DNA of 64,000 nucleotides, taken from positions 97,560 to 161,559 of the forward strand of contig DRMV01000033.1 of assembly GCA_011322445.1 (NCBI GenBank), in the 5' to 3' direction. The translations under genes and the position numbers were made by a program. The stretch comes from Chloroflexota bacterium (lineage in GTDB: Bacteria > Chloroflexota > Anaerolineae > Anaerolineales > DRMV01). Positions 3,601 to 58,039 of this stretch are shown piece after piece (the first letter of the stretch is position 1; each line of letters starts with the position of its first letter). A model generated the notes under the pieces. The model did no database searches. It was not told where the DNA came from and worked only from the letters and a program-made list of their open reading frames with translations.

Positions 3601-4142
3601 ACCTTTACACCCGCCTGTTAGCCGAAGCCGTGCGCCGCCTGCGGGAAAGCCGCGGCCTGCCCGCGGAAGGCGGTTTTGGCGAAGCCGAAGCCGCGCTGGC
3701 TGCGATGCCCAGCCCGGTGAGCGTGGAACTGCCCCTGGAAGTCAGCCTGCCGCCGGAATACATCCCCGACGAGGGCACCCGCCTGGCGCTCTACCGCCGC
3801 CTAGCCGAAATCCGCAGCACCGAAGCCCTGGAAGCCCTCGCCGCCGAACTGGAAGACCGCTTTGGCCCCCTGCCGCCGCCCGCGGCCAACCTGCTCTACC
3901 AGATGCGGGTGAAACTGCTGGCCGAGCGGGCAGGCATCGCCGCGGTGCGCACCGACAGCGGGCAGGTCGTGCTGCAGCCGCCGCCCCCACCCGCAGGGCA
4001 AAAACGCCCCCTGCCCCCCTTACCCCCGCCCTGGCGCACCGGCAGCCGCGCCTACTGGCTGCCCCTGCGGGAGGGGTGGCAGGAGGAAGTCATCAAAGGG
4101 CTGGAAATGCTGGGAAAGTCGGATAGTCGGATAGTCAGATAG
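693..4142 (+). CDS. mfd: Transcription-repair coupling factor
   Basis: UvrB-like N-terminus, CarD/RID ([14 protein letters not shown]), [31 protein letters not shown] motif ([13 protein letters not shown]), TRCF C-terminus. Confidence 0.97.
1857..1945. repeat. GATC-bounded palindromic element inserted in-frame in mfd (copy 1)
   Basis: 35-bp core CCCCCTCCCCTCCCTTAGTAAGGGAGGGGAGGGGG (1891-1925) identical to 18151-18185; side hairpin CCGCC-TGC-GGCGG. Confidence 0.9.
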
Positions 4143-4228
4143 TCGGGAAGTCGGGAAGTCGGATAGTCGGGTGGTCAGGGAGTCGGGAAGTCGGATAGTC
4201 GGGTGGTCGGGTGGTCAGGGAGTCGGGA
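4117..4228 (+). repeat. 14-unit 8-mer tandem array (AGTCGGAT/AGTCGGGA/AGTCGGGT/GGTCAGGG)
   Basis: Exact period 8; supplies the mfd TAG stop (4140-4142). Confidence 0.95.
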
Positions 4229-5051: not shown

Positions 5052-5792
5052 ATGCCCCAAGTTACCGTGACCTTCTTCGGCGCGCTGCGGCACATCACCG
5101 GCGTGCCGCGTCTCACGCTGGAAATCCCCCCCGGCACCACCGTGGCACAACTCAAAGCCCTGCTGCTGGAACGCTACCCGGAACTGGACAAATCGTTCCA
5201 GGGGATTGTCACTTCCATTGGTGAAATCACCGCCGAAGACGATGAAATCGTGCCCGATGGCGCGCAAGTTGCGCTTTTTCACCCCATCGCCGGCGGCAGC
5301 GAGGCAGCGCCGGAAAGTGCTTTCCCCACCCTCGCCCTGGTGACGGAAGAAACGCTGGATTTGAACGCCCTGGTCGCCCGCATCACCGCCCCCACCACGG
5401 GCGCGGTGGTGTTCTTCACCGGTGTGGTGCGCGGCCGCACCGGTGAACAGGAAACCGCCTATCTGGAATACGAAGCCTACCGCGAGATGGCCGAGGCCAA
5501 ACTGCAACAGGTGGCCGCCGAAATTCGTGAGCGCTGGCCGAAGGTGGAAGGCATCGTCCTGGTGCAACGCATCGGCCGGCTGGAAGCCGGCACGCCCACG
5601 GTGCTGGTGGCCTGCGCTGCCCCCCACCGCAACGACGGCGCTTTTGAAGCCGCCCGCTACGGCATCAATCGGCTCAAAGAAATCGTGCCGGTGTGGAAAA
5701 AGGAAATCGGCCCGTCGGGCGAGCATTGGGTGCATGGCCACTACCACCCCACCGCCCAGGACGAACGCCCCTCAGCCCCTCCAGAACACTGA
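5052..5792 (+). CDS. moaE: MoaD-MoaE fusion (MoaX-like molybdopterin synthase)
   Basis: N-terminal MoaD domain ending FHPIAGG, followed by MoaE motifs (GAVVFFTGVVR, LEYEAY, PHRNDGAF, LKEIVPVWKKE). Confidence 0.9.
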   Translation: MPQVTVTFFGALRHITGVPRLTLEIPPGTTVAQLKALLLERYPELDKSFQGIVTSIGEITAEDDEIVPDGAQVALFHPIAGGSEAAPESAFPTLALVTEETLDLNALVARITAPTTGAVVFFTGVVRGRTGEQETAYLEYEAYREMAEAKLQQVAAEIRERWPKVEGIVLVQRIGRLEAGTPTVLVACAAPHRNDGAFEAARYGINRLKEIVPVWKKEIGPSGEHWVHGHYHPTAQDERPSAPPEH

Positions 5793-5830
5793 CCACGGGC
5801 GCCAAGCACCAAACACGGAGCACTTCACCT

Positions 5831-6961
5831 ATGAGCATTCCCTGGCGCTGCGCTTCTTGCGGCACCCCCTACCCCGACGACGCTTTGCCCTACCGCTGCC
5901 CCAAATGCGGCGACATCTTCGACCGCGTCGAAGCCCCTCGCTTCGCTCCCGAAGCCGTCGACAATGCCCTGCCCGGCATCTGGCGTTACCGCCACACCTT
6001 TGCCCTGCCGCCGGAAACCCCACCCGTCAGCCTGGGCGAAGGCCGTACCCCGCTGGTATGGGACGAAGCCTTTGGGCGGCGCGTGGCCTTCAAACTGGAA
6101 TTCATCAACCCCACCGGATCCCACAAAGACCGGGGGGCGGCGCTGATGGCGGCCTTCCTGAAAAGCCGCGGCGTCACCACCGCGGTGGAAGACTCTTCCG
6201 GCAATGCGGGAGCCGCGTTTGCCGCCTACGCCGCCCGCGCGGGCATCCACGCCCGGATCTACACCCCGGCTTACGCCTCGCCGGTGAAACGGGCACAAAT
6301 GGCCGCCTACGGGGCCGAAGTGGTGGCCGTGGACGGCCCGCGTTCCGCCGCCGCCGAAGCCGCCCGCCAGGACGCCGACCGCGGCATCCCCTACGCCAGC
6401 CACGCCTTCCTGCCCGTCGGGTTGGATGGCTACGCCACGATTGCTTACGAAATCTACGAGCAAATGGGCGCGCCCGCGTCGGTCGTCGCCCCCGTAGGGC
6501 ACGGCGGGCTGCTGCTGGGCATCGCGCGCGGCTTCCTGGCGCTGCTGGCAGGCGGCGTCATCGAGAAAATGCCGCGCCTGTTCGGCGTCCAGGCCCTGGC
6601 TTGCGCGCCGGTGTGGGCCGTGGCCCGTGGCGGGCGCGAAGCCCTTGGATGGGTTACCGACCAGTTGCCTACCGTGGCCGAGGGCGTGCGCGTCCGCTGG
6701 CCAGTGTGGGGCGACAAACTTCTGAATACCATCGAAGGCCACGATGGCACTTTCCTGGTAGTGGAAGAAGAAGCCATTTTGCCCGGACGAGAGGAACTGG
6801 CGCGCCGCGGTTTCTTCGTCGAACCCACTTCGGCCATCGTATGGGACGCCCTGCGCCAGATCGCCAACTGTGCGCCCGACCCAATCGCTGTTGTCTTGAC
6901 CGGTAGTGGTTTCAAGGCCCCCCAAGTCACCCCCGTTTCCGAAGGAGAAAAAGAGCAATGA
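5831..6961 (+). CDS. Threonine synthase-like PLP-dependent enzyme with N-terminal Zn ribbon
   Basis: CxxC..CxxC, SLGEGRTPL, NPTGSHKDRG (PLP Lys), SSGNAG, VEPTSA; start ATG 5831. Confidence 0.85.
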   Translation: MSIPWRCASCGTPYPDDALPYRCPKCGDIFDRVEAPRFAPEAVDNALPGIWRYRHTFALPPETPPVSLGEGRTPLVWDEAFGRRVAFKLEFINPTGSHKDRGAALMAAFLKSRGVTTAVEDSSGNAGAAFAAYAARAGIHARIYTPAYASPVKRAQMAAYGAEVVAVDGPRSAAAEAARQDADRGIPYASHAFLPVGLDGYATIAYEIYEQMGAPASVVAPVGHGGLLLGIARGFLALLAGGVIEKMPRLFGVQALACAPVWAVARGGREALGWVTDQLPTVAEGVRVRWPVWGDKLLNTIEGHDGTFLVVEEEAILPGREELARRGFFVEPTSAIVWDALRQIANCAPDPIAVVLTGSGFKAPQVTPVSEGEKEQ

Positions 6962-8199
6962 CCGAACGCGTTGTCATCACCGGCATGGGCACCGTCAACC
7001 CCCTTGGGCATACCGTAGCCGAAAGCTGGGAAGCGGCACTCCATGGCACCTCCGGCGTGGGGCCCATTACACTGTTCGATGCGTCGCGCCTGAAAGTCCA
7101 CATTGCCGCCGAAGTCAAAAACTTCGACCCCACCCGATACATTGACCGCAAGGAAGTGCGCCGCACCAGCCGCTTTGAGCAATTTGCCCTCGCCGCAGCC
7201 CAGGAAGCCATTGCCCAGGCAGGCATCGCTGCCGACACCGAAGACCCCTACCGGGTGGCCGTGATTGTCGCCTCGGCTATCGGGGGGCTGGAACGGCTTT
7301 CGGAAAACGTCCTCATTGCCCACAAACGCGACCCCTCGCGCATCAGCCCCTTCGTGATTCCCATGATGATGTCTAACGGCGCCGCGTCGCTGATTGCCAT
7401 GCACCACGGCTTCCACGGCCCCTCGTTTTCCACAGCCTCAGCATGCGCCTCTGGCAACGATGGCATTGGGGTAGCATGGCACCTGATCCGCTCTGGTGCC
7501 GCCGATGTTGCCATCACCGGCGGCAGCGAAGCCACCATCACCTTTACCGGCGTGGGCGCGTTCGACCGCTTGGGGGCGCTTTCCCGCCGCAACGACGACT
7601 GGAGCATGACGCCCCAACCCTTCGACAAAAACCGCGACGGCCTGGTGATGGGCGAAGGGGCTGGCATCCTGGTGCTGGAAAGCGAGCGTCACGCCAAAGC
7701 GCGCGGGGCTGAAATTCTGGCCGAACTGGCCGCCTACGGAGCCACAGCCGACGCCTATCACGTCACCGCTCCCCACCCCGAAGGCACCGCCGGGGCCAAG
7801 GCCATTTTGCTGGCCCTGGAAACCGCAGGCGTGACCCCCGACGAAGTGGACTACATCAACGCCCACGGCACAGCCACCCAACTCAACGACGTCTCCGAAA
7901 CCCGCGCCATCAAACGCGCCTTCGGCGAGCAGGCCTACCGCATCCCGATTTCCTCCACCAAGTCCATGACCGGCCACATGATGGGTTCGACCGGTGCGCT
8001 GGAAGCCATCTTCTGCGTGCAGGCCATTCGCGAAGGCGTGGTGCCGCCCACCATCCACTACGAAACCCCCGACCCCGAATGCGACCTGGACTACGTGCCC
8101 AACGAACCGCGCGAACATGCGGTCGAAGTTGCCATCAGCAACGCTTTCGGCTTTGGCGGACACAACGCCATTCTGGTGTTCCGCAAATACACCGGATAA
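6958..8199 (+). CDS. fabF: 3-oxoacyl-ACP synthase II
   Basis: RVVITGMG, SACASG catalytic Cys, NAHGTAT, KSMTGH, SNAFGFGGHNA. Confidence 0.97.
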   Translation: MTERVVITGMGTVNPLGHTVAESWEAALHGTSGVGPITLFDASRLKVHIAAEVKNFDPTRYIDRKEVRRTSRFEQFALAAAQEAIAQAGIAADTEDPYRVAVIVASAIGGLERLSENVLIAHKRDPSRISPFVIPMMMSNGAASLIAMHHGFHGPSFSTASACASGNDGIGVAWHLIRSGAADVAITGGSEATITFTGVGAFDRLGALSRRNDDWSMTPQPFDKNRDGLVMGEGAGILVLESERHAKARGAEILAELAAYGATADAYHVTAPHPEGTAGAKAILLALETAGVTPDEVDYINAHGTATQLNDVSETRAIKRAFGEQAYRIPISSTKSMTGHMMGSTGALEAIFCVQAIREGVVPPTIHYETPDPECDLDYVPNEPREHAVEVAISNAFGFGGHNAILVFRKYTG

Positions 8200-8223: not shown

Positions 8224-8288
8224 AAACCACAGATTCCGCAGATTTTCGCGGCGTTCCCCAAGCGTGAGCCATTCGCAAAATCTGTGGT
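8224..8288. repeat. CAGATT/AATCTG inverted-array element, empty copy
   Basis: AAACCACAGATTCCGCAGATTTT ... AAAATCTGTGGT. Confidence 0.75.
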
Positions 8289-8372
8289 GCTGAAAACCTC
8301 GAACGCGGCGAGCACCGGCCACCCAGCCCGGCTGGGCGGTCGGCGTTCCTTGCGTTCCCAGGAGTGTGCTCT

Positions 8373-9092
8373 ATGGAAACGCGCTTGCTCGAAACACCCC
8401 AGGCCTTCGCACAGCGCCTGGGCCTTCACTTCAACGACCTGCGGCTGTTGATTCGGGCGCTCACCCATCGCTCGTACGTCAACGAACACCGCGACGCGCT
8501 GGAAGACAACGAGCGGCTGGAATTTTTAGGCGATGCCATTTTGGATTTCGTCGTGGGGGAATGGCTCTATCACCACTTTCCCGAAATGGATGAGGGAGCG
8601 CTGACCCGCTTGCGCTCGGCGCTGGTCTGCCGCGAGCAACTGGCCGAGTTTGCCCGCCAAACCGGGCTCGACCGCGCCATGCTGCTGGGCCACGGTGAAG
8701 ACGCCCACGGCGGGCGGCGGCGTGACACCCTGCTCTCAGCCACCTTCGAAGCCCTCATCGGCGCCCTTTACCTGGACAGCGGACTGAAAGCCGTGCGTGA
8801 CTTTCTCTTCCCGCTGCTGGAACCGGCGGTTGACTACATTCTGGAACGCCGTCTCGACGAAGACCCCAAAAGCGTGCTCCAGGAACGCGTCCAGGCCATG
8901 GGCTACGATTCACCTGCTTACCGCACGGTGCGCGTGGAAGGCCCTGACCACCAGCGCCGGTTTGAAATTGAAGTCGTGGTAGGCAATACACCGTGGGGCC
9001 GCGGCACAGGCCCCAGCAAGCGCGAAGCCACCAAAAACGCCGCCCGCGTTGCCTTGCAACGGCTGGAACGCGGCGAACTCCCCCCGGAATAA
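8373..9092 (+). CDS. rnc: Ribonuclease III
   Basis: ALTHRSY, NERLEFLGDAIL signature, dsRBD (DPKSVLQE...GPDH); AGGAG RBS before ATG 8373. Confidence 0.97.
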   Translation: METRLLETPQAFAQRLGLHFNDLRLLIRALTHRSYVNEHRDALEDNERLEFLGDAILDFVVGEWLYHHFPEMDEGALTRLRSALVCREQLAEFARQTGLDRAMLLGHGEDAHGGRRRDTLLSATFEALIGALYLDSGLKAVRDFLFPLLEPAVDYILERRLDEDPKSVLQERVQAMGYDSPAYRTVRVEGPDHQRRFEIEVVVGNTPWGRGTGPSKREATKNAARVALQRLERGELPPE

Positions 9093-10920: not shown

Positions 10921-11329
10921 CGGCATCCTCCTCAAAAACATAGCCTGCCTGCAAGAGGGCACGGCGCGCCGCGCACCAGCGGTCGGCAGGCACCCAAAGG
11001 TAATCGGTATCGTAGGTGGAAACCGCCAAAATCGGAGTGCCCGCGGCAGCCAGCACCTGACTCAGCCCCGCCAGCACACCCACCAGCGAAAAATCCAGCG
11101 CGCCCGCCACACGAAAGCCGCGCCACGGCCCCTCGCGGCGGGAATTTTCAGGGGCGGGGAGGCTTTCCGGAAGCAACAGCGAAATCTCGCCAACGGTGCG
11201 AGCACAGAAAACGCCTTCGGCCTGGCACAGTGCTACCGGCAGGGCGGCTTCCGGCGGCAGGCGGTAAATGAAATATGCCGCCGGCAACGCGCTCAACCGC
11301 AAAGATTCAGCGGGCAGGGTCGTTGTCAT
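10907..11329 (-). CDS. ACT-domain protein (CASTOR/ACT_7-like)
   Basis: RTVGEISLL, WRGFRVAGALDFSLVGVLA, ILAVSTYDTDYLWV. Confidence 0.85.
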   Translation of the reverse strand: MTTTLPAESLRLSALPAAYFIYRLPPEAALPVALCQAEGVFCARTVGEISLLLPESLPAPENSRREGPWRGFRVAGALDFSLVGVLAGLSQVLAAAGTPILAVSTYDTDYLWVPADRWCAARRALLQAGYVFEEDADDGR

Positions 11330-12545
11330 GGGCTGTCACCCGGGCGCGCAGGCCGCCTTCCGCCAGACGAACGCGAATCTCGGCATCCACGGGCGCTTGC
11401 GCTGGCTGCCGCACGACCTGCCCTTTGGCGTCGGTCACCAACGCATAGCCGCGCCGCAGCACGGCGAGGGGGTTCAGGGCTTCCAGCCGTTGCGTCAACC
11501 CTTCCAGCCGCATCCGCCGCAGAGCAAAGGCATGTTGGGCCGCGGTATCCATCTGGCGAGCCAGTTCATCGAGGCGCTGCGCCTGCGAAAACAGGCGGTA
11601 GAGCGGCGCGTGGCGCTGCAGGCGCACTTCCAGCGCGGTCAAATCTGCCCGGCGGGAAGCCAAAGCCGCCATTGCAGCGCGGTTCAGGCGGGTTTCCAGC
11701 CCCCGCAGCACCATCAGCAGGTCGTCGCGGTGCGGCACGGCCTGTTCCGCCGCACCGGTGGGCGTGGGGGCGCGCAGGTCGGCGGCGTAATCGGCCAGGG
11801 TGAAGTCAGTTTGATGCCCCACGCCGGTAATCACCGGCGCTTCGGAAGCCGCCACCGCGCGCACCACGGCTTCGTCGTTGAAGGCCCACAGGTCTTCCAG
11901 CGAGCCGCCGCCGCGCGCCAGGATGATGAGGTCGGGGCGGGCATGGGCATTCAAGGCGCGCAGGGCTTCCACAATGGCGGCGGGGGCTTCCTGCCCCTGC
12001 ACCAGCGCGGGCGCAAGCACCACCTCGGCCAGCGGATAGCGGCGGCGCAGGGTGTTGAGAATATCGCGCAGGGCGGCGCCCGTGGCCGAAGTCACCACGC
12101 CAATGCGCTGCGGAAAGCGCGGCAGGGGGCGCTTGCGGGCTTCGTCGAACAGCCCCTCGGCCTCCAGTTTGGCCTTCAGGCGCTGGAATTCCCGATAGAG
12201 CGCGCCTTCCCCCACCGGCCGAAGCACATCGGCATAAAACTGGTAGCGCCCTCCGGCTTCGTAGACGTCAATATGGCCGTGGGCTTCCACCGCGTCGCCG
12301 TTGCGGGGCAGAAAATGGCGCTGCTGGCGCAGCACCTGGGGTTTCCACATCACGCAGGGCAGTTGAGCCTTGCCGTCCTTGAGGGTAAAGTAGGCGTGCC
12401 CCGAGGAAGCGACTTTGAAATTGGAAACCTCGCCCTGCACCCACAATTCGCGCAGGTTGTCATCGCTGGCAACGAGGTCGCGGATGTAGCGCGTGAGGTC
12501 GGTAATCGTCCAAACGGGGGGGCGGAAGAATTCTTCGAACAGCAT
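11307..12545 (-). CDS. xseA: Exodeoxyribonuclease VII large subunit
   Basis: OB fold (WVQGEVSNF...SGHAYFTLKD), RIGVVTS, ARGGGSLEDLWAFNDE, GVGHQTD, PTPTGAA. Confidence 0.97.
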   Translation of the reverse strand: MLFEEFFRPPVWTITDLTRYIRDLVASDDNLRELWVQGEVSNFKVASSGHAYFTLKDGKAQLPCVMWKPQVLRQQRHFLPRNGDAVEAHGHIDVYEAGGRYQFYADVLRPVGEGALYREFQRLKAKLEAEGLFDEARKRPLPRFPQRIGVVTSATGAALRDILNTLRRRYPLAEVVLAPALVQGQEAPAAIVEALRALNAHARPDLIILARGGGSLEDLWAFNDEAVVRAVAASEAPVITGVGHQTDFTLADYAADLRAPTPTGAAEQAVPHRDDLLMVLRGLETRLNRAAMAALASRRADLTALEVRLQRHAPLYRLFSQAQRLDELARQMDTAAQHAFALRRMRLEGLTQRLEALNPLAVLRRGYALVTDAKGQVVRQPAQAPVDAEIRVRLAEGGLRARVTAHDNDPAR

Positions 12546-12563
12546 GACCTAATGATAACAGAA

Positions 12564-12588
12564 AACCGCCTGCGCGGGGCAGGCGGTT
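12564..12588 (-). terminator. Intrinsic terminator downstream of hbd
   Basis: AACCGCCTGC-5nt-GCAGGCGGTT with a U-rich tail on the minus strand. Confidence 0.7.
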
Positions 12589-12593
12589 AAGTC

Positions 12594-12692
12594 AAACCAC
12601 AGATTACACAGATTTGCACAGAAAACACAGATTCGGTGGGGTTTTATGCCTTTTCCATCCCCTTCTGTGCCTTCGGTGAATTTCTGTGGTTT
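12594..12692. repeat. CAGATT/AATCTG inverted-array element, empty copy
   Basis: AAACCACAGATTACACAGATTTGCACAGA ... TTCTGTGCCTTCGGTGAATTTCTGTGGTTT. Confidence 0.8.
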
Positions 12693-12698
12693 CTCGCT

Positions 12699-13586
12699 TT
12701 ATTTATCCACCAGCGGGTTGGGCACACCCTTGGGGTTTTCGCGGTAATCGTAAAAGCCGATGCCGGTCTTGCGCCCTAAGTAGCCCGCGTCTACCATCTT
12801 GCGCAGCAAATAAGCCGGGCGGTATTTGTCGTCGCCCAGGTCGCGCTGGAGCACTTCCATCACGAACAGCACCACATCCACGCCGATCAGGTCGGCAAGG
12901 TAAAGCGGCCCCATGGGGTGGTTCATGCCGAGTTTCATCACGGTGTCGATGGCTTCCACCGAGCCGACGCCTTCTTCCAACGCGAACACGGCTTCGTTGA
13001 TCATCGGGCACAAAATGCGGTTGGAAATGAAGCCGGGGCGGTCGTTGGCTTCCACAGGCACCTTGCCCATGGCCTTGGAAACCTCAAACACGGTGGCCGT
13101 GGTCTCGTCGGAAGTCGCCAGCCCGCGGATGACTTCCACCAGCCGCATCAGGGGCACCGGGTTCATGAAGTGCATCCCGATGACCTTTTCGGGGCGCTGG
13201 GTGACCGAGCCGATTTTGGTAATCGGGATGGAAGAAGTGTTGGAAGCCAGAATCGCATCGGGGCGGGTGATGCCGTCCAGGTCGCGGAAGATGTCCAGTT
13301 TGATGGCGGGGTTTTCGGTGGCCGCTTCGATGACCAGGTCGGCATCGGCGGCATCGGCCAAGGTGTCGGTAGTGCGGATGTTGAGGGCGGCTTCCCGCTG
13401 CTCGGCGGTGATTTTGCCCTTTTCCAGCAGTTTGGCCGTGGATTTGTCAATGGTCTTTTTCGCACGCTCGATCTGCTCGGGCACGACGTCCATCATAGTG
13501 ACTTCAAAGCCGGAAACCGCGGCGGTCTGGGCAATGCCGTTGCCCATAGTGCCTGCGCCGACGACGAAAATTTTCTTGATGCTCAT
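12699..13586 (-). CDS. hbd: 3-hydroxybutyryl-CoA dehydrogenase
   Basis: [41 protein letters not shown]; GGAG RBS before ATG 13586. Confidence 0.93.
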
Positions 13587-13601
13587 TTCTTCACTCCTTT
13601 G

Positions 13602-13692
13602 TTGCTTGGTTACTTCGTTGCCTAGTGACCTGGTTGCCTGGTGATGGAACAAACCAAGTAACCAGGTCACTCATCGACCAGGTAACTAACCG
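13602..13692. repeat. Inverted pair of 8-mer arrays (TTGCCTGG-type x5 / ACCAGGTA-type x5)
   Basis: Period-8 units facing each other across a ~10-nt spacer; contains the thiolase stop. Confidence 0.85.
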
Positions 13693-22605: not shown

Positions 22606-23517
22606 ATGACCTATCGCTTCGAAGTGCTCGACCTCAATTTCCAAAACGTGCCGCACACCATTGCGGTGTACCTCTTCCGCCACGACAAGGGCATCGCCCT
22701 CATCGAAAGCGGCCCCGGCTCGACCGTGCCAGCCCTGAAAAAAGCCCTGGCCGACCGCGGCTTTGCCCTGAGCGACATCACCGACGTGCTGCTCACCCAC
22801 ATCCACCTCGACCACGCCGGAGCAGCCGGTTTCCTGGCGCGGCAGGGCGCGACCATCCATGTCCACCCCGTGGGTGCGCCGCACATGATCAACCCCGAGA
22901 AACTGCTCATCTCCGCGGGGCGCATTTACGGCGACATGATGGAAACTCTCTGGGGCGACTTCCTGCCCGTGCCGGAAGAGAAAATCCACATTCCGCAAGA
23001 CGAGGAAGACATCGTCATTGGCGACCTGCGCTTCACGCCCCTCGACACCCCCGGCCACGCCTATCACCACTATGCCTACATGTTCGAAGGCGTGTGCTTC
23101 AGCGGCGACGTAGGCGGCGTGCGGCTTCCCCTCGGTAACGACACCAAACACCTGCGCCTGCCCATGCCGCCGCCGGAATTCCACCTGGAAAAGTGGCGTG
23201 AAAGCCTTGCCCGCCTGCGGGAAGCCGCCCCGCGCGCCATCGTGCCCACCCACTTCGGCCCCTTTGAGGACGTCGACTGGCACCTGGACGCCATCGAGCG
23301 GGAACTCGACGACGTCGAGGGCTTCCTGGAAGCCGTGATGCCTTCCCAGCCCAGCATCGAAGAACTGGAACGCAAACTGGACGCCTGGGTGCTGGAAAAG
23401 AACCAGCGCGACGGCATCGACCCCGAAACCCACCACGCCTACGAAACCGCCAACCCCACATGGATGTCGGCCTCGGGCCTGGCGCGCTACTGGAAGAAGT
23501 TTCGGCAGAGCCAATAA
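22606..23517 (+). CDS. MBL-fold metallo-hydrolase
   Basis: THIHLDHAG, TPGHAYHH, SGD, PTHFG. Confidence 0.92.
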   Translation: MTYRFEVLDLNFQNVPHTIAVYLFRHDKGIALIESGPGSTVPALKKALADRGFALSDITDVLLTHIHLDHAGAAGFLARQGATIHVHPVGAPHMINPEKLLISAGRIYGDMMETLWGDFLPVPEEKIHIPQDEEDIVIGDLRFTPLDTPGHAYHHYAYMFEGVCFSGDVGGVRLPLGNDTKHLRLPMPPPEFHLEKWRESLARLREAAPRAIVPTHFGPFEDVDWHLDAIERELDDVEGFLEAVMPSQPSIEELERKLDAWVLEKNQRDGIDPETHHAYETANPTWMSASGLARYWKKFRQSQ

Positions 23518-23526
23518 AACTGCAGA

Positions 23527-23579
23527 AAACCGCAGATTACACAGAAAAAATCTGCGCTAATCTGCGCAATCTGCGGTTT
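23527..23579. repeat. CAGATT/AATCTG inverted-array element, empty copy
   Basis: AAACCGCAGATTACACAGA-AAAA-AATCTGCGCTAATCTGCGCAATCTGCGGTTT. Confidence 0.85.
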
Positions 23580-38391: not shown

Positions 38392-39329
38392 AACCCTCCG
38401 GTTGGTTGGAAACCCTGAGTTACCTCGGCTTCACCGTCTTGTGGATTGCAGGCGCTCTCGGCGGGCTGTGGACGGTCAAAGCCGAAGATAGCATTCCGCG
38501 GCAAGGCAACGAGGCCAGCCAGCCGCGACAGGTCGTGCTGTTCAGCACCCCTATTCCGTTCCCCACGCTGGCCCCCACCGCCGCTGCAGGAGCGAAAGCC
38601 ACACCGGCCCCCACGGCAACACCATCGTGTCATCCCCCGAAAGGCTGGCATGCCATCACCATCGCCGCGGGCGAAACGCTGAAAACCCTTGCCGCCCGCT
38701 ATCACACCACCGCGGGTGCGCTGCAAAAAGCCAACTGCCTGCCCGCACCGGCATTAGTGGCCGGGACCACGCTGTTCGTGCCGTCGCGCCCCACCGCCAC
38801 ACCTCCGCCGCACCCCACCGCCACGGCGCCAGCCTGCGGCCCTCTCCCCGGCTGGGTAGAACACACCGTCCAGCCCGGCGAAAACCTGTACCGTATCAGT
38901 TTGGCCTACCGGGTCAGCATCGCACTGCTGTTGCGCGCCAACTGCCTGCCCGGCACCCTCATCTATGCGGGGGAACGCCTTTGGGTCCCCAATGTGCCCA
39001 CCAGCACCCCGGCGTGGACGGCTACCGCCGTCGCCACCCCTACCCTCACTCCCACAGCCACTCCGACGGCCGTTGCCACCGCCACCCCTACGGCCTCGGC
39101 CACCGCGGCGGCTTCCCCCACCTCCACCGCCACCCCTACGCCAACAGCCACCGGTCCTACGCCCACGCCAACATCCACACCTACCCCCACGGCGACCGCA
39201 ACGCCCACACCCACCCCCACCGCCACCAACACACCGCTGCCGCCGACCTCCACCCCCACCCCCTCGCCGACCAATACCCCCGTGCCGCCGACCAATACGC
39301 CCACGCCCACTCCCACCCCTACCCCCTGA
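38388..39329 (+). CDS. Two-LysM peptidoglycan-binding protein with Pro/Thr tail
   Basis: Two repeats (H.IAAGETL..LA.RY / HTVQPGENLYRISLAY...NCL), long PT repeats. Confidence 0.88.
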   Translation: MKPSGWLETLSYLGFTVLWIAGALGGLWTVKAEDSIPRQGNEASQPRQVVLFSTPIPFPTLAPTAAAGAKATPAPTATPSCHPPKGWHAITIAAGETLKTLAARYHTTAGALQKANCLPAPALVAGTTLFVPSRPTATPPPHPTATAPACGPLPGWVEHTVQPGENLYRISLAYRVSIALLLRANCLPGTLIYAGERLWVPNVPTSTPAWTATAVATPTLTPTATPTAVATATPTASATAAASPTSTATPTPTATGPTPTPTSTPTPTATATPTPTPTATNTPLPPTSTPTPSPTNTPVPPTNTPTPTPTPTP

Positions 39330-39333
39330 TACC

Positions 39334-40392
39334 ATGCGCCTTCGCGCTCCCGTCCCGCCTCTCATTCGCCTGCTCTTCGCACTGGCAGCCCTGGCCATCG
39401 GGGGAATGCTGCTCCTCGGGGGCTGCAGGCTGCCCGGGTTTTCACCAGCGGGCCGCGCCACGGCATGGCCCATGACAGCCACCTGGACCCCCTTCGCCCC
39501 TCTTCCGCCCACAGCCACCTATTTACCCACCAGCACCCCCACACCCACCCCCACCCCTACGCCACCCCCTCCCCCCACCCCGCGGCCCACACCCCCCCCC
39601 AAAGGCTACCTCGGCCAACCCGTGCCGCCGCTGCCCCAGGCCCAAGGGCGCATCAACATCATGCTGCTGGGGTCTGATCGACGCCCCGACCACGTCGACT
39701 TCCGCACCGACGCTTTCATGCTGCTTTCCTACAACCCCAAAACCGGGGCCACCAGTATCATTTCCTTCCCGCGCGACACCTTTGTGTATCTTCCCGGCGT
39801 GGGCTACAACCGCATCAACACAGCGATGGAATTCGGCGGCTTCCCGCTGGTGCAGCGCACGCTGGAATACAACTTCGGCATCCGGCCTTCCCACTACATT
39901 CTGGTTGAATTTCGAGGCTTTGCTACCCTCATCGACCAGTTGGGGGGTGTTGACGTCGTCGTGCCCCACCAGTTATGCGACCGCCGCACCCATTACGGCG
40001 ACCACTATTGCGTCGGGCCGGGCACGGTTCACATGGATGGCAGCCTGGCCCTGTGGTATGCGCGCTCGCGCATCACCACCAGCGATTTCGACCGTGCCCA
40101 TCGCCAGCAGGCGCTGATTGTGGCCGTCATCCACAAACTGCTTTCCCTCAACGCCCTCGGCCAGGCGCCTTCCCTTTATCGCACTTACCGCCAAAGCGTG
40201 GAAACCGACATCAGCCTGGCGGCCTTCCTGAAAATGGTGGCCCAGGCGCGCCGTTTCCGCAGCGACGCCATCCGCGCCTACGTCATCCAGCCGCCCGCGC
40301 TGCAGCCGTGGATTACACCTCAGGGGGCTTATGTGCTGCTTCCACACCACGACGCCGTGCGCAGCATTTTAGAAACCGCACTCTCGCGGTAA
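39334..40392 (+). CDS. LCP (LytR-CpsA-Psr) family protein
   Basis: INIMLLGSD, RTDAFML, SFPRD, RINTA, YARSR, SDFDRAHRQQ. Confidence 0.93.
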   Translation: MRLRAPVPPLIRLLFALAALAIGGMLLLGGCRLPGFSPAGRATAWPMTATWTPFAPLPPTATYLPTSTPTPTPTPTPPPPPTPRPTPPPKGYLGQPVPPLPQAQGRINIMLLGSDRRPDHVDFRTDAFMLLSYNPKTGATSIISFPRDTFVYLPGVGYNRINTAMEFGGFPLVQRTLEYNFGIRPSHYILVEFRGFATLIDQLGGVDVVVPHQLCDRRTHYGDHYCVGPGTVHMDGSLALWYARSRITTSDFDRAHRQQALIVAVIHKLLSLNALGQAPSLYRTYRQSVETDISLAAFLKMVAQARRFRSDAIRAYVIQPPALQPWITPQGAYVLLPHHDAVRSILETALSR

Positions 40393-51394: not shown

Positions 51395-51400
51395 GGAGTT

Positions 51401-51480
51401 AGTCCTGTAGTCGGGTGGTCAGGTAGTCGGGTAGTCGGGTAGTCAGGTGGTCAGGTAGTCGAGTGGTCGCGTCGTCGGGA
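51401..51480. repeat. 10-unit 8-mer array (AGTCGGGT/GGTCAGGT)
   Basis: Period 8; same family as 4117-4228; between ttuB and ttuA. Confidence 0.92.
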
Positions 51481-53704: not shown

Positions 53705-54274
53705 TCAGTCGTCTTCCGGCGGGCGGTAGCGTTCCAGGTCGGGCACCGCGATGAACGGCAGGTTGCGGTAGTATTCGTCCATGTCCAGCCCGTAGCCAAA
53801 GACGAATTCGTTGGGAATCACAAAGCCACTGTAGTGGATGGGTACTTCGACTTCACGGCGCTCGGCTTTGTCAAGCAGGGTGCACACCTTGAGGGATTTG
53901 GGCTGGCGCAGCGAGAGGATGTTGAGCACCTCGGCGATGGTATGGCCGCTGTCGATGATGTCTTCCACCAGCAACACATGGCGGTTGGTGATGCTGGTTT
54001 GCAAGTCCATCGTCAGCCGCACCCGCCCGGCGCTCTGGCGCGCGCCCGCGCCGTAAGAGGAAATCGCCATGAAGTCGATGGCGTGGGGCACGGTGATGTG
54101 CTTCATCAGGTCAGTGAGGAACATCACGCCGCCGCGCAGAATGCACACCAGCAACAGTTCTTCGCCGGCGTAATCGCGGCTGATTTCCGCACCCAGTTCG
54201 GCGATGCGCGCCATCAGGCGGTCTTCGGGGATCAGAATTTTGGCAAGGAAGTCGTGATAGTCCTGGATGGGCAT
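53705..54274 (-). CDS. hpt: Hypoxanthine phosphoribosyltransferase
   Basis: ILRGGVMF, LLVEDIIDSGHT, LLDK, FVFGYGLD. Confidence 0.96.
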   Translation of the reverse strand: MPIQDYHDFLAKILIPEDRLMARIAELGAEISRDYAGEELLLVCILRGGVMFLTDLMKHITVPHAIDFMAISSYGAGARQSAGRVRLTMDLQTSITNRHVLLVEDIIDSGHTIAEVLNILSLRQPKSLKVCTLLDKAERREVEVPIHYSGFVIPNEFVFGYGLDMDEYYRNLPFIAVPDLERYRPPEDD

Positions 54275-54401
54275 GGGCAATTCTCGTTGGGGAAGATGGA
54301 TTCAGCCTGGCAGGGGGAAACCACAAATTTCACAGAGTTCGCAGAAAAATATCCGCCGCTTTCACAAATTTACACCGATTAGACAGGGAGCAAGCGACGG
54401 C

Positions 54402-54986
54402 TCAATTTTCAACACCGGCCGCCTGCAAGGCACGCGCCAGCAGGTCGCCGACATGGAGTTCGCCAGCCCATTGCTGCAGATAATTCAGGTCCAGATCGCC
54501 CGCGCGCACTTTCAACACACCGAGTACATCGCGCCACTGGCGCTCGGAAACCTCACCGCCCTGCCGATACCATTCCAGTTTGGAGAGGATGATGTCTTCG
54601 GGGCTGGCAAATCTCGCACTGACCTCAGTTTCCAAAGTAAAGGATTGCCTTTGAGCACGTGCCAGTTGGGAACGCAGAAAAGGACGCTGGCGGGGGACAA
54701 AAATGTCAACCTTGAACATGGTCTCGCGATGGATAATATTGAAACTGGCATGGCGTCGAATAGCCTCGGCAATCATCCGCTCGTCTATGTAAAATTCGCC
54801 TTGCAAAGCAGCCACAAAAGGAGATAGATGTTCAAGTCGCATCTCGGCCACGATGTCCGCGTCTTGGGTGAGACGTATCATACCGTAAAGGATAGAAGCC
54901 AACGAGCCGCCAATGAGGTAAGGGACGCCCAGTTGTTCAAACACCCGCGTTACCTTGAGCGTAACTTCCAAAGGCTCATTTTGCAT
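54402..54986 (-). CDS. Nucleotidyltransferase toxin-like protein (MenT/AbiEii-like)
   Basis: YLIGGSLAS, RLTQDADI (RxTxDxD), SPEDIILSKL, RQWRD. Confidence 0.8.
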   Translation of the reverse strand: MQNEPLEVTLKVTRVFEQLGVPYLIGGSLASILYGMIRLTQDADIVAEMRLEHLSPFVAALQGEFYIDERMIAEAIRRHASFNIIHRETMFKVDIFVPRQRPFLRSQLARAQRQSFTLETEVSARFASPEDIILSKLEWYRQGGEVSERQWRDVLGVLKVRAGDLDLNYLQQWAGELHVGDLLARALQAAGVEN

Positions 54987-55248
54987 CGGGCAAATCTCCA
55001 TAAACTTCGTGTGCCAGATCCTCCCCTAAAAGCAAAGCGGCCAACCTACGGCGCAGTTCGGCTTCGGAGGCTTGAGGATAGCGAGCACGCAACCCTGCCA
55101 ACGCCAATCGTCGGGCAGAGACATTCAATTGCGCCAGCATGTTCATCTTGTGAGTAGGGCTGGCTTGCCGCCAGAGTTCAATCTGCAAAGCCTCTACCTC
55201 GGGATCGGTATCCGAATACAGTCCGCTCACGCCTTCGCTCCCAAACAA
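54976..55248 (-). CDS. Small helical antitoxin-like protein (MenA1/Rv0078B-like)
   Basis: SDTDPEVEALQIELWR...AGLRARYPQASEAELRRRLA; overlaps the toxin start by 11 nt; start may be GTG 55230. Confidence 0.7.
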   Translation of the reverse strand: MFGSEGVSGLYSDTDPEVEALQIELWRQASPTHKMNMLAQLNVSARRLALAGLRARYPQASEAELRRRLAALLLGEDLAHEVYGDLPDAK

Positions 55249-55318
55249 TCTGCCAATTGCCCGAATTTACCCAAGAGATCTGCAAACAATCTGTGCCAAT
55301 CTGCGTAATCTGCGGTCT

Positions 55319-58039
55319 TTATTCGCCCAATTTCTCCTCAACCCACCCGGCCACTGCGGCTAAGGCCTCATCCAGCCGCGCGGGGTCTTTGCCGCCAGCC
55401 TGGGCTAAGGTGGGCTTGCCGCCGCCGCCGCCGCCCACGAAGCTCGCCACGAATTTCGCCAGTTCGCCCGCGTGCAGGCCCTTTTTCGTCAGCGGCTGGC
55501 TCACCGCGGCAATGATGAGCGGGCGTCCGTTGCTCACGGTCGTAAGCACGGCTACGCCTTCGGGGTGTTGCTGGCGGAAGCGGTCGGCCAAGCGGCGCAG
55601 GGCATCGGCGTCGGCATCGGGCACGCGCACCGCCAGCACGGGCACGCCCGCCACGTGCGGCGGCTCGGCAATCTGCCGCTCCACCGCGGCTTCAGCCACA
55701 CGGCGGCGCAAGGCGGTCGCCTCTTTGCGGGCTTCGGTCAGTTCCGCCTGCAAGTGCGCTACCTTTTCGGGCACGCCCTCGGGCGGCGATTTCAGCAGCG
55801 CGGCGGCTTCTTCCAGCGCGTCCATGCGCCCGCGGGCAAAGCGGTATGCTCCGCGACCCGTCACGGCTTCAATGCGGCGCACGCCCGCCGCGGCGCTACC
55901 CTCGCTCACGATGAAGAACGCGCCGATGTCGGCGGTGCGGCGGGCGTGCGTGCCGCCGCACAGTTCGCGGGAAATCGGCTCCGCGTCGCCGATGGTGATG
56001 GTGCGCACAATTTCGCCGTATTTTTCGCCGAAAAGCGCCATCGCGCCCTCGGCAATGGCTTCCTCGCGCTTCTTGAAGGCCACCTGCACGGGGTAATCGG
56101 CGGCGATCGCGTCGTTCACCCACTGCTCAATGCGGCGCAACTGCTCGCGGGTCAGGGCTTCGGGGTGAGTGAAGTCAAAGCGCAGGCGGTCGGGAGCGAC
56201 CAGCGAACCCGCCTGCCGGGCGTGCTCGCCCAAAATCGCGTGCAGGGCGGCGTGCAGCAGGTGGGTCGCGGTGTGGTTGCGCATGATGTCCTTGCGGCGG
56301 GAAGCGTCCACCGCGGCAAGGGCAACGTCGCCCACGCGGGGCGTGCCCTTCACCACCTCGCCGATGTGCACAATCAGGCCCGCGGCAGGCTTGCGGGTGT
56401 CGGTCACACGGATTTCCCAGCGGGGCTCGGCCACCGAAACAATCGTACCGGTGTCGGAAACCTGACCGCCCGATTCCACATAGAAGCACGTTTCGGGCAG
56501 AATCACGCCCACGATGTCGCCTGCGGCCGCGCTTTCCACGGGCTGGTTGTCTTTCATCAGCGCGAGCACCTCGCCCTCCACTTCCAGCGCGCCGTAGGGG
56601 TCGTAGCGCACGCCTTCGGGCGGCAGTTTGCCCTCGGCTTGCAGGCGCTCGGCAAGGGCGCGGTAGGCGTCCACGTCGTCTTCCACCAACGGGCCAAAGG
56701 CCTTGCCCTTGCCCGAAGCCACGCGGTGCACTTCCATCGCTTTGTGGAAGCCAGCTTCGTCCACGTCCATGCTGTGCTCGCGGGCGATATCGCGGGTGAT
56801 TTCCAGCGGCAGGCCGTAGGTGGCGTAGAGTTGGAAGGCATCCTCGCCGCCGATGATGCGCTTGCCCTCGGCCTGCAGGCGCGCCATCAGGTCTTCCAGA
56901 TAAGCGGTGCCGGTTTCCACCGTGCGGGCGAAGCGGACTTCCTCGCGGGTGATGGTTTCCAGAATCGCGTCGCGGTGCTTGACGATTTCGGGGTAAACAT
57001 GCCCAAAGCGTTCAATCACGGTTTCGGCAACCTGCGCCATGAACGGCTCGGTAAAGCCGATTTTGGCGCCAAAGCGGGCGGCGCGGCGGATGATCATGCG
57101 GCAGACATAGTTGCGGCTTTCGTTGCCGGGCACCACGCCGTCGCCGATGAGGAAGGTGGCCGCGCGGGTGTGGTCGGCGACCACGCGGTAGGCGACCAAG
57201 TGCTCCTGCCGCTGGGCATCGGTGTGCCCCGCCAGCCGCTGGATGGTATCCATGATGGGCGTGAAAAGGTCGGTGTCGTAGGAATTGTCCACGCCCTGCA
57301 AAATCATGGTGATGCGCTCCAGCCCCATGCCGGTATCCACGCCGTGCTTGGGCAGTGGGGAACGGGAGCCGTCCGGCGCCTGATTGAACTGCATGAAGAC
57401 CAAGTTCCAGATTTCCAAGAAGCGGTCTTCGGGGTTATCGTCCAAGTGGTAGGCAAGTTCCTCGCCGTAAAGTTGGCCGCGCTCGGGGAAGAAATCGTAG
57501 TGGATTTCGGAAGTGGGGCCGCAGGGGCCGACGTCGGCCATCTGCCAGAAATTGGTGGCATCGCCCAACCGGGCAACCCGTTCCGCGGGCACGCCCACTT
57601 CCTCCACCCAGATGCGGTAGGCTTCGTCGTCGGAATGGTGCACGGTGAAGTACAGCCGCTCGGGGGGGAGGCCGTAAACTTTGGTGAGCAGTTCATACGC
57701 CCAGGTGATGGCTTCGCGTTTGAAATAATCGCCGAAGGAAAAATTGCCTAGCATTTCAAAGAAAGTGTGGTGGCGGGGGCTGGGACCGACGTTTTCCAGG
57801 TCGTTGTGCTTGCCCGAAACCCGCATACAGCGCTGCACGGTGGTGGCGCGGGTGTAGGGGCGCTTGTCCAGGCCGAGGAAAACGTCTTTGAACTGCACCA
57901 TGCCGGCGTTGGTGAAAAGCAACGTCTGGTCGCCGCCGGGCACAAGCGAAGAGGAAGGCACGATGGTGTGCCCCTTGGATTCAAAGAATTTGAGGAAGGC
58001 GTCGCGAATCTGGTCGCCGGTCATTTTTTTGTCGGGCAT
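55319..58039 (-). CDS. alaS: Alanyl-tRNA synthetase
   Basis: LLFTNAGMVQFK, HHTFFEMLGNFSFGDYFK, DTGMGLER, NHTATHLLH, ELCGGTH, GGGGG C-Ala. Confidence 0.98.
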   Translation of the reverse strand: MPDKKMTGDQIRDAFLKFFESKGHTIVPSSSLVPGGDQTLLFTNAGMVQFKDVFLGLDKRPYTRATTVQRCMRVSGKHNDLENVGPSPRHHTFFEMLGNFSFGDYFKREAITWAYELLTKVYGLPPERLYFTVHHSDDEAYRIWVEEVGVPAERVARLGDATNFWQMADVGPCGPTSEIHYDFFPERGQLYGEELAYHLDDNPEDRFLEIWNLVFMQFNQAPDGSRSPLPKHGVDTGMGLERITMILQGVDNSYDTDLFTPIMDTIQRLAGHTDAQRQEHLVAYRVVADHTRAATFLIGDGVVPGNESRNYVCRMIIRRAARFGAKIGFTEPFMAQVAETVIERFGHVYPEIVKHRDAILETITREEVRFARTVETGTAYLEDLMARLQAEGKRIIGGEDAFQLYATYGLPLEITRDIAREHSMDVDEAGFHKAMEVHRVASGKGKAFGPLVEDDVDAYRALAERLQAEGKLPPEGVRYDPYGALEVEGEVLALMKDNQPVESAAAGDIVGVILPETCFYVESGGQVSDTGTIVSVAEPRWEIRVTDTRKPAAGLIVHIGEVVKGTPRVGDVALAAVDASRRKDIMRNHTATHLLHAALHAILGEHARQAGSLVAPDRLRFDFTHPEALTREQLRRIEQWVNDAIAADYPVQVAFKKREEAIAEGAMALFGEKYGEIVRTITIGDAEPISRELCGGTHARRTADIGAFFIVSEGSAAAGVRRIEAVTGRGAYRFARGRMDALEEAAALLKSPPEGVPEKVAHLQAELTEARKEATALRRRVAEAAVERQIAEPPHVAGVPVLAVRVPDADADALRRLADRFRQQHPEGVAVLTTVSNGRPLIIAAVSQPLTKKGLHAGELAKFVASFVGGGGGGKPTLAQAGGKDPARLDEALAAVAGWVEEKLGE

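Follow-up and report, generated by a model that had tools for sequence, protein, structure and literature searches.

Inverted CAGATT arrays around a putative MenT-like toxin-antitoxin pair in a Chloroflexota contig, and their link to GxxExxY nuclease genes

Described palindromic repeats and the alaS-hpt element

Repetitive extragenic palindromic (REP) elements and REPINs are short, non-coding, multi-copy palindromes that lie just past stop codons, and their enzyme, RAYT, is thought to be supplied in trans. Miniature inverted-repeat transposable elements (MITEs) end in inverted repeats, encode no protein, occur in several copies per genome, and have longer, gene-bearing relatives. We find elements with features of both in a 64-kb stretch (63% G+C) of contig DRMV01000033.1 from a Chloroflexota bacterium, hereafter the window. 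Four of its sites bear short tandem units with a CAGATT core, arranged as inward-facing arms. Three sites are gene-less hairpins. At the fourth, between alaS and hpt, the arms lie about 1 kb apart and enclose exactly two overlapping minus-strand genes, which encode a nucleotidyltransferase (NTase) and a small partner, a putative toxin-antitoxin (TA) pair. On balance, we hold it to be probable that all four sites are copies of a widespread palindromic element, and that a MenT-like TA module, which moves independently of the arms, entered the fourth copy at a hot spot. The TA pair is best read as a passenger, not as cargo carried by the arms. Such arms flank genes for the small PD-(D/E)XK protein GxxExxY in other genomes, and the three short window copies may be read as gene-less, MITE-like derivatives of these nuclease-bearing elements.

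Unlike REP, which is a single GC-rich imperfect palindrome, the window-type arms consist of tandem 9-10-nt units. The gene found inside such arms encodes a PD-(D/E)XK (GxxExxY) nuclease, whereas RAYT is a Y1 transposase flanked by REPs, and the CAGATT elements keep one end sequence over many phyla. No RAYT (IS200/IS605-like Y1) gene was called within 10 kb of the TA site. The elements appear to differ from MITEs in that we saw no DDE or other known transposase partner, no insertion polymorphism, and no target-site duplication of 3 nt or more across the 38 paired elements listed from other genomes. The only recurrent gene with the same ends at the listed array loci is GxxExxY, which is not a known transposase.

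Integron attC cassettes and Xer-dependent pdif modules are likewise small, promoter-poor modules, often TA, with imperfect palindromic sites and no transposase inside, but the arms here are inverted on both sides and usually enclose nothing. The element ends read AAACCRCAGATT...AATCTGYGGTTT and show no attC core site (RYYYAAC / GTTRRRY); no integrase was called within 10 kb of the TA site, and the pair does not belong with the integron cassettes. The 23S rRNA intervening sequences of the Leptospira type (PF05635) hold a small open reading frame (ORF) in long inverted repeats, and their stem is an RNase III substrate. They resemble the alaS-hpt locus in having a small ORF in inverted repeats inside a transcribed housekeeping locus, but they encode another protein family and occupy rRNA helices, whereas the arms here lie in spacers of protein genes. 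The short tandemly repeated repetitive (STRR) heptamer arrays of heterocystous cyanobacteria are short tandem units in non-coding spacers. As in the window, several such unit families occur in the spacers of one genome; the units here, however, are 8-10 nt long, as a rule form inverted pairs of arrays, and are tied to one particular gene family. For the enclosed gene pair, the comparison is with MenA/MenT of Mycobacterium tuberculosis. A MenT1-like fold (template modelling (TM) score 0.59-0.62), a G-S...D-x-D motif, and an overlapping small upstream partner are common to both, whereas the NTase shares only 14-17% sequence identity with MenT. It matches only DUF6036 in Pfam, below threshold, has no sequence match in PDB, NCBIfam or PADLOC, and is known here from sequence and a structural model. 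We file the finding with non-autonomous palindromic repeats that have a gene-bearing form. The occurrence of one arm sequence over many phyla, and its link and that of its sister arrays to GxxExxY, appear to be undescribed in the sources searched.

One arm family in the window and across phyla

Each of the four window sites has inward-facing arms with two or more tandem units of 9-10 nt; the unit core is CRCAGA(TT), and the outer end is (A)TCC or ACC. A short non-coding centre, with a total length in the range of 33-209 nt, is present in the copies at 8224, 12594 and 23527 but not in the alaS-hpt copy. The gene-less copies are the following.

8224-8288, no strand: gene-less palindromic array element 1, between fabF (6958-8199) and rnc (8364-9092); z-scores of folding -3.3/-2.6
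12594-12692, no strand: gene-less element 2, with four + units and degenerate - units; z -3.6/-3.3
23527-23579, no strand: gene-less element 3, 9 nt past the stop codon of a metallo-beta-lactamase (MBL)-fold gene (22606-23517); z -6.6/-7.9

Counting exact CRCAGATT matches, we found 13 in the window against 3.55 ± 2.16 expected, and none of 100 shuffles reached 13. Over the whole window, the matches were confined to 8228-8286, 12598-12633, 23531-23575 and 55288-55314. At every site, + units occupy the left side and - units the right, and the units are spaced 9-10 nt apart. The outer ends read AAACC[AG]CA... on the left and ...TG[CT]GGT on the right. We also used a profile hidden Markov model (HMM) that was trained only on arms from other genomes. 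This model matched 8225-8250(+), 55316-55289(-), 23578-23550(-), 12596-12621(+) and 23529-23546(+), and more weakly 54329-54345(+, E 0.067) and 8288-8269(-, E 0.39). Across the rest of the window it gave nothing better than E 7. Since a model built from other genomes recovers exactly these sites, the four belong to one arm family. Motif clustering, shared geometry and the independent HMM thus agree with the preliminary description of the locus, which had placed all four in a single inward-facing repeat family.

The three copies that had been called empty are indeed hairpins of 53-99 nt without genes, lying 3-24 nt beyond stop codons, with folding z-scores from -2.6 to -7.9. The distances from stop codon to element that had been reported were also correct (alaS 2 nt, hbd 6 nt, the MBL-fold gene 9 nt, fabF 24 nt). 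Element 2 occupies the spacer of two convergent genes, a 440-residue ORF at 11268-12590 (+) and hbd at 12699-13670 (-). Among the window copies, only element 3 is followed by a T run, and an intrinsic terminator fits this copy only. Readings of the arms as DnaA boxes, operators or attC sites were dropped on sequence grounds and on distribution. At gathering score, Rfam yielded one tRNA only in the window, and one fluoride riboswitch only in 13 element-rich loci.

The hairpin at 8224-8288, after fabF, lies directly upstream of rnc, the gene for RNase III (8364-9092). A long stem just 5' of rnc raises the possibility of RNase III autoregulation.

Scanning 596 Gb of sequence (one genome per species) with the arm pattern CRCAGATTNCRCAGATT, we obtained at least 120 loci. 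In such a volume, we calculate that chance would produce about a thousand single matches, and so a lone arm match means little. The scan also returned at least 38 inward-facing arm pairs of 33-209 nt in other genomes. Their ends are strongly conserved and their centres unrelated, with the consensus ttt-A-T-C-C-R-C-A-G-A-T-T-a-C-g-C-A-G-A-T-T from 76 arms. The shared termini ATCC-RCAGATT-N-CRCAGATT... bound gene-less elements in roughly ten phyla; paired elements were found in Planctomycetota, Acidobacteriota, Verrucomicrobiota, Gamma- and Betaproteobacteria, Anaerolineae, Nitrospirota, Aminicenantes, Chryseobacterium and others. None of the 38 listed pairs holds an ORF. The one apparent filled copy, of 474 nt (L070), was discarded because a chance motif within a gene had been mistaken for one of its arms. 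In a few elements (L072, L122), similarity between the two arms is confined to the CACAGA core, which argues that this core is conserved as sequence and not merely as a stem. An AT..AT pair surrounds CC...GG in 14 of the 38 listed copies, but AT is self-complementary and may belong to the inverted repeat.

A BLAST search of plasmids and phages with the consensus arm gave a few unannotated matches (Gemmatirosa, Bacteroides) and no annotated transposon ends. A general scan for distant inverted arrays paired up separate elements, and otherwise gave only GxxExxY loci and, in Litorilinea, a housekeeping gene enclosed by arrays. Two further arrangements were seen on the way. At L056 (2376-2580) the palindromes are nested, with CACAGATT arms around inner inverted arrays of GGATTTCG units. 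A Planctomycetaceae chromosome (L021, 5580-6125) has three tandem copies of a unit of about 211 nt, each with a complete CAGATT element.

GxxExxY genes between inverted arrays

We clustered all ORFs of the 120 listed array loci to find recurrent neighbours. Only generic families (ABC transporters, two-component proteins) and GxxExxY recurred. GxxExxY is a small PD-(D/E)XK protein of about 125 residues (Pfam PDDEXK_3, PF13366; NCBIfam TIGR04256) with no sequence relative in PDB, and its predicted structure has a mean predicted local distance difference test (pLDDT) value of 49. The preliminary description had advised a search for a co-occurring recombinase or nuclease, and this gene, found inside the same arms elsewhere, is a candidate for the trans-acting enzyme.

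CAGATT-type arms flank GxxExxY genes in Verrucomicrobia, Coatesbacteria and Desulfobacterales. The CCGCAGATT-type arms, the same as in the window copies, occur at five loci (L108, L061, L033, L223, L235). In L108 the gene sits between a + arm and a complete + / - palindrome, and in L061 and L033 an arm abuts it. In L223 and L235 it lies between gltB and gltD and is bracketed by GTCCGCAGATTGCGCAGATGAACGCAGATT and AATCTGCGCGAATCCGCGCAATCTGCGGAAG. There, the GxxExxY start codon falls in the + arm and the C-terminal residues are encoded by the - arm (L223 2170-2640, L235 1490-1960). The resulting C-terminus NLRESA[KQ]SAEE, a translated - arm, is present in 118 of 120 close GxxExxY homologues (P0241-P0360). 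The gltB-gltD location is kept in proteins that are 75-80% identical.

Other units occupy the same position around other GxxExxY genes. Inverted arrays of CACAGAGG flank the gene in Bacteroides and Bernardetia, those of ACAAATC in Prevotella, and those of CGCGAAGG in Sphingomonas, where the gene lies between fabD and fabG. In viral contigs the flanking inverted arrays are of CACGAAAA and CGCGAAAAG; the plasmid and viral-contig genes were found by protein similarity only. At L113, the GxxExxY gene lies 3.6 kb from a CAGATT array and is bracketed by its own inverted CGCAAAG arrays. Gemmatirosa has two complete CGCAGAGG palindromes around the gene, Treponema only a short inverted repeat of one or two units (CACGGATTCG), and one Fusobacteria plasmid direct repeats. 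Scoring the flanks for inverted 5-mers, we found a score of at least 4 at 8 of 11 GxxExxY loci, compared with 2.3% of mismatched flank pairs. The duplexes formed by arms around GxxExxY have a z-score of about -7. GxxExxY genes are thus associated with inverted arrays in these genomes, an architecture for which we found no description in the full-text literature searched.

The CAGATT-arm GxxExxY proteins from three phyla are 55-90% identical to each other and 35-40% identical to proteins with other units, and two CACAGAG-arm proteins are 55% identical. The pattern fits joint inheritance or co-evolution of arms and GxxExxY, although phylogeny confounds it.

Tentatively, we propose that GxxExxY genes together with inverted arrays of 8-10-nt units may form an undescribed class of selfish or semi-domesticated elements in many phyla. 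The proposal takes in insertion after stop codons, recognition of the units or their hairpin by the nuclease, MITE-like copies, and a loop that takes up small modules. The GxxExxY nuclease would recognise the arrayed units, or a hairpin or cruciform formed by them, and its cuts might promote copying or retention of the element through recombination, in a homing-like manner. The transcribed arms would form a long stem. GxxExxY is a very large family (at least 7,900 clusters) with no known function, and its link to a DNA architecture gives a testable hypothesis, namely that of a nuclease acting on its own flanking arrays. If true, this would account for a type of palindrome found between genes from Chloroflexi to Planctomycetes, which annotators would then be able to recognise.

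The toxin-antitoxin pair at the alaS-hpt junction

The alaS-hpt site has the following features.

53705-54274, minus strand: hpt, flanking housekeeping gene; G+C at third codon positions (GC3) 0.82
54318-54390, plus orientation: hpt-side arm of the filled element, about seven degenerate + units, outer end GGAAACCACAAATT
54402-54986, minus strand: 194-residue nucleotidyltransferase, MenT-like putative toxin, with the invariant G-S...D-x-D motif
54976-55230, minus strand: 84-residue helical partner, putative antitoxin, 11-nt overlap with the NTase start
55240-55316, minus orientation: alaS-side arm of the filled element, three exact units at 55288-55314 plus more degenerate units
55319-58039, minus strand: alaS, flanking housekeeping gene; GC3 0.82

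The ORFs at 54402-54986 and 54976-55230 bear out the earlier claim that the arms enclose exactly two overlapping genes, for a nucleotidyltransferase and a small partner. The degenerate + units at 54318-54390 include CACAAATTT, CACAGAGTT and CGCAGAAAA, and the outer end of the alaS-side arm (...AATCTGCGGT) is 2 nt from the alaS stop codon. Although distant, the two arms are still complementary (duplex z -2.9, transcribed strand). As had been stated, no transposase or integrase is adjacent; none was called within 10 kb on either side of the TA site. A 28-nt direct repeat around the TA pair has 71% identity and was too weak to interpret.

The GC3 of the two genes is 0.54-0.57, compared with 0.82 in hpt and alaS, which marks the TA pair as foreign to this genome. 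Protein neighbours indicate Chloroflexi/Anaerolineae, and a 100%-identical NTase (P0001) sits in the same gene neighbourhood on a hydrothermal-vent metagenome contig. The predicted NTase model (pLDDT 82) is closest in fold to MenT1 (8an4/8an5, E 1e-4 to 6e-4), followed by LnuA and ANT(2'')-Ia. Residues G27, S28, D42 and D44 are invariant across 22 homologues. The family gives more than 7,500 matches at about 80% identity and is unusually uniform; the source names include Chloroflexi and Rectinema. In most of 80 homologous loci the partner gene lies directly upstream of the NTase, typically with an overlap of 8-11 nt. We consider the 194-residue protein a putative MenT-like toxin and the 84-residue gene product its putative antitoxin, going by the structural model and the gene order.

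The TA family occurs elsewhere without arms. At 56 evaluable homologous loci, the NTase flanks gave no inverted-array signal above the mismatched-flank null (mean 0.39 vs 0.36). Six NTase modules carry instead locus-specific direct duplications of 33-58 nt, taken from gene 3' ends, promoters and gene starts. From the lack of arms at homologous loci and these six duplications, we conclude that these arms play no part in the movement or exchange of the NTase module. Only one NTase locus (L175) has a nearby arm, a solo - arm about 70-130 nt downstream; as a second arm-bounded NTase locus it was rejected, with no convincing partner arm.

Recombinase-less TA modules flanked by target duplications are the NTase modules of L126, L138, L148, L153, L160 and L172. 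Such locus-specific duplications, those of L206 (5142-5239 / 5790-5890) included, are 33-100 nt long and 86-95% identical. Their form suggests Campbell-type or att-like integration.

Comparing relatives, we found alaS adjoining hpt in only three lineages, namely the window, L204 and L206; relatives with hpt at 84% identity or less have TK-hpt synteny and are uninformative on the junction. In L204, whose hpt is 93% identical to that of the window, the order is alaS, DUF4160/DUF2442 (opposite strand), a partner/NTase pair, an expanded CGCAAAG array, a hairpin, an hpt-side arm, and hpt. This arm upstream of hpt is orthologous to the hpt-side arm of the window. The NTase pair of L204 is only 62% identical to the window pair; the local palindrome does not enclose it, and alaS has no arm after it. 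In their final 204 nt the two NTase genes have 89% identity, in line with the flanking genes, and in the remainder 65%, which places a recombination breakpoint inside the NTase gene. In L206, with hpt 92% identical, the order is alaS, a GGTATTGA array, DUF4258/DUF2283, a 100-nt duplicate of the alaS 3' end with an array, a CGACTACC array, and hpt. The NTase pair and CAGATT arms are both missing there. The content of the junction is thus variable, and the alaS-hpt junction is a hot spot for TA modules. With three different small TA pairs in lineages about 8-15% apart at the DNA level, a mosaic NTase gene and flanking duplications, it offers a compact natural case for the exchange of recombinase-less TA modules. 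Elsewhere in the L204 genome, a gene-less element beside a tRNA gene has a + arm that aligns with the hpt-side arm of the window, including 15 nt past that arm, at 77.5% identity over 80 nt. By this match, a gene-less form of the same subfamily exists at another locus.

Two observations belong to the same junction. The NTase mosaic divides window 54402-54605 from 54699-54941, against L204 3392-3931, with at most about 65% identity in the 5' part and the partner gene. In L204, an 80-nt-period tandem repeat of CGCAAAG-type units (3937-4153) stands right after the NTase stop codon and resembles an expanded arm of the sister family.

In the history that we favour, the element between alaS and hpt would have been present first, and a two-gene foreign module would then have landed or recombined into its loop. 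Several results weigh against this reading and the wider proposal on GxxExxY. The three lineages that keep the junction include no empty alaS-hpt site. No presence/absence polymorphism of gene-less copies was seen, which speaks against active mobility of the element. A tblastn search with three GxxExxY proteins found no GxxExxY gene in the window. Its place between gltB and gltD in 75-80%-identical proteins speaks for long residence and not for active movement. The layouts vary, from a + arm plus palindrome (L108) to two complete palindromes (L233) and direct repeats (L234), so that GxxExxY may often reside in the arrays without driving them. Because array-rich genomes have arrays in many spacers (L030), adjacency of array and gene is by itself weak evidence.

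The preliminary description had favoured a cassette that gains and loses small cargo, in which arms and TA pair are one element that captures and moves small genes in trans or by recombination between arrays. Part of this stands. Two true outer ends bracket exactly two genes, as expected of a single element, filled forms of the family do exist with GxxExxY as cargo, small gene pairs at the junction differ between close relatives, and L175 has a solo - arm near its NTase. The usual cargo is the nuclease, however, and not a TA pair. As a general TA carrier the arms do not hold up, given that none of the 38 listed pairs elsewhere holds an ORF, that NTase modules elsewhere lack arms, and that the L204 pair is unbracketed. 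We found no second copy of arms plus TA and no evidence that the two move as a unit. The comparison with close relatives that had been put forward as a check went the other way, since L206, which lacks the TA pair, also lacks the CAGATT arms. We judge the composite cassette fairly unlikely. Alternatively, the arms could be host-encoded structural or regulatory hairpins and no remnants of a mobile element, acting as terminators, mRNA-stabilising stems or RNase III processing stems, with the TA pair merely lying between two of them. All copies lie in transcribed spacers directly past stop codons and fold stably, a T run follows copy 3, copy 1 is just upstream of rnc, and GxxExxY arms are conserved at the orthologous gltB-gltD locus. 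This explanation accounts poorly for an end sequence of 20-30 nt that is common to about ten phyla around unrelated centres, a recurrence that favours horizontal spread or a shared sequence-specific protein. Moreover, the arm pair of L072 matches in the CACAGA core alone, as if sequence and not pairing were conserved, and only one of four copies has a terminator-like tail. We regard ordinary host hairpins as unlikely; were they the answer, nothing would be left but a foreign TA pair inside a variable spacer, a common arrangement. A TA pair in such a spacer is in itself ordinary.

Chance could also have brought two unrelated partial arrays to face each other across the TA pair. Several short-period array families populate many spacers of this genome and its relatives, and the hpt-side arm is very degenerate (HMM E 0.067). 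The other CAGATT sites in the window, however, are all complete palindromes without solo arms, and the outer-end signature is present in both TA-site arms, which point inward. For one gene pair in the window to be enclosed by two solo arms in the right orientation, we arrive at a rough figure below 0.1, and we hold a chance arrangement to be quite improbable. Finally, the arrays might be operators bound by the small partner protein, which would autoregulate the TA operon. Short-repeat arrays act as operators for some ribbon-helix-helix antitoxin-type repressors, which gives a precedent, and the alaS-side array lies directly upstream of the operon. But identical arrays stand at three sites without a TA pair and in phyla and loci without the TA family, and homologous NTase operons lack arrays. 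The operator reading is close to refuted.

Several short-period spacer array families coexist in the lineage of the window and its relatives. In the window, one-direction arrays with an 8-nt period occur at 4113-4228 and 51400-51479. Units of the AGTCGGGT type overlap the 3' end of the ORF at 693-4142, and the spacer from a thiS-like stop to a ttuA-like start holds similar units, with CGACTACC on the coding strand. In L206 (5206-5260, 5850-5990), a CGACTACC unit also precedes hpt, and GGTATTGA arrays follow alaS. At 39050-39600 of the window, C-rich imperfect tandem repeats of 6-45 nt (CCACCC and similar) extend over large ORFs and probably encode a Pro/Thr-rich low-complexity segment.

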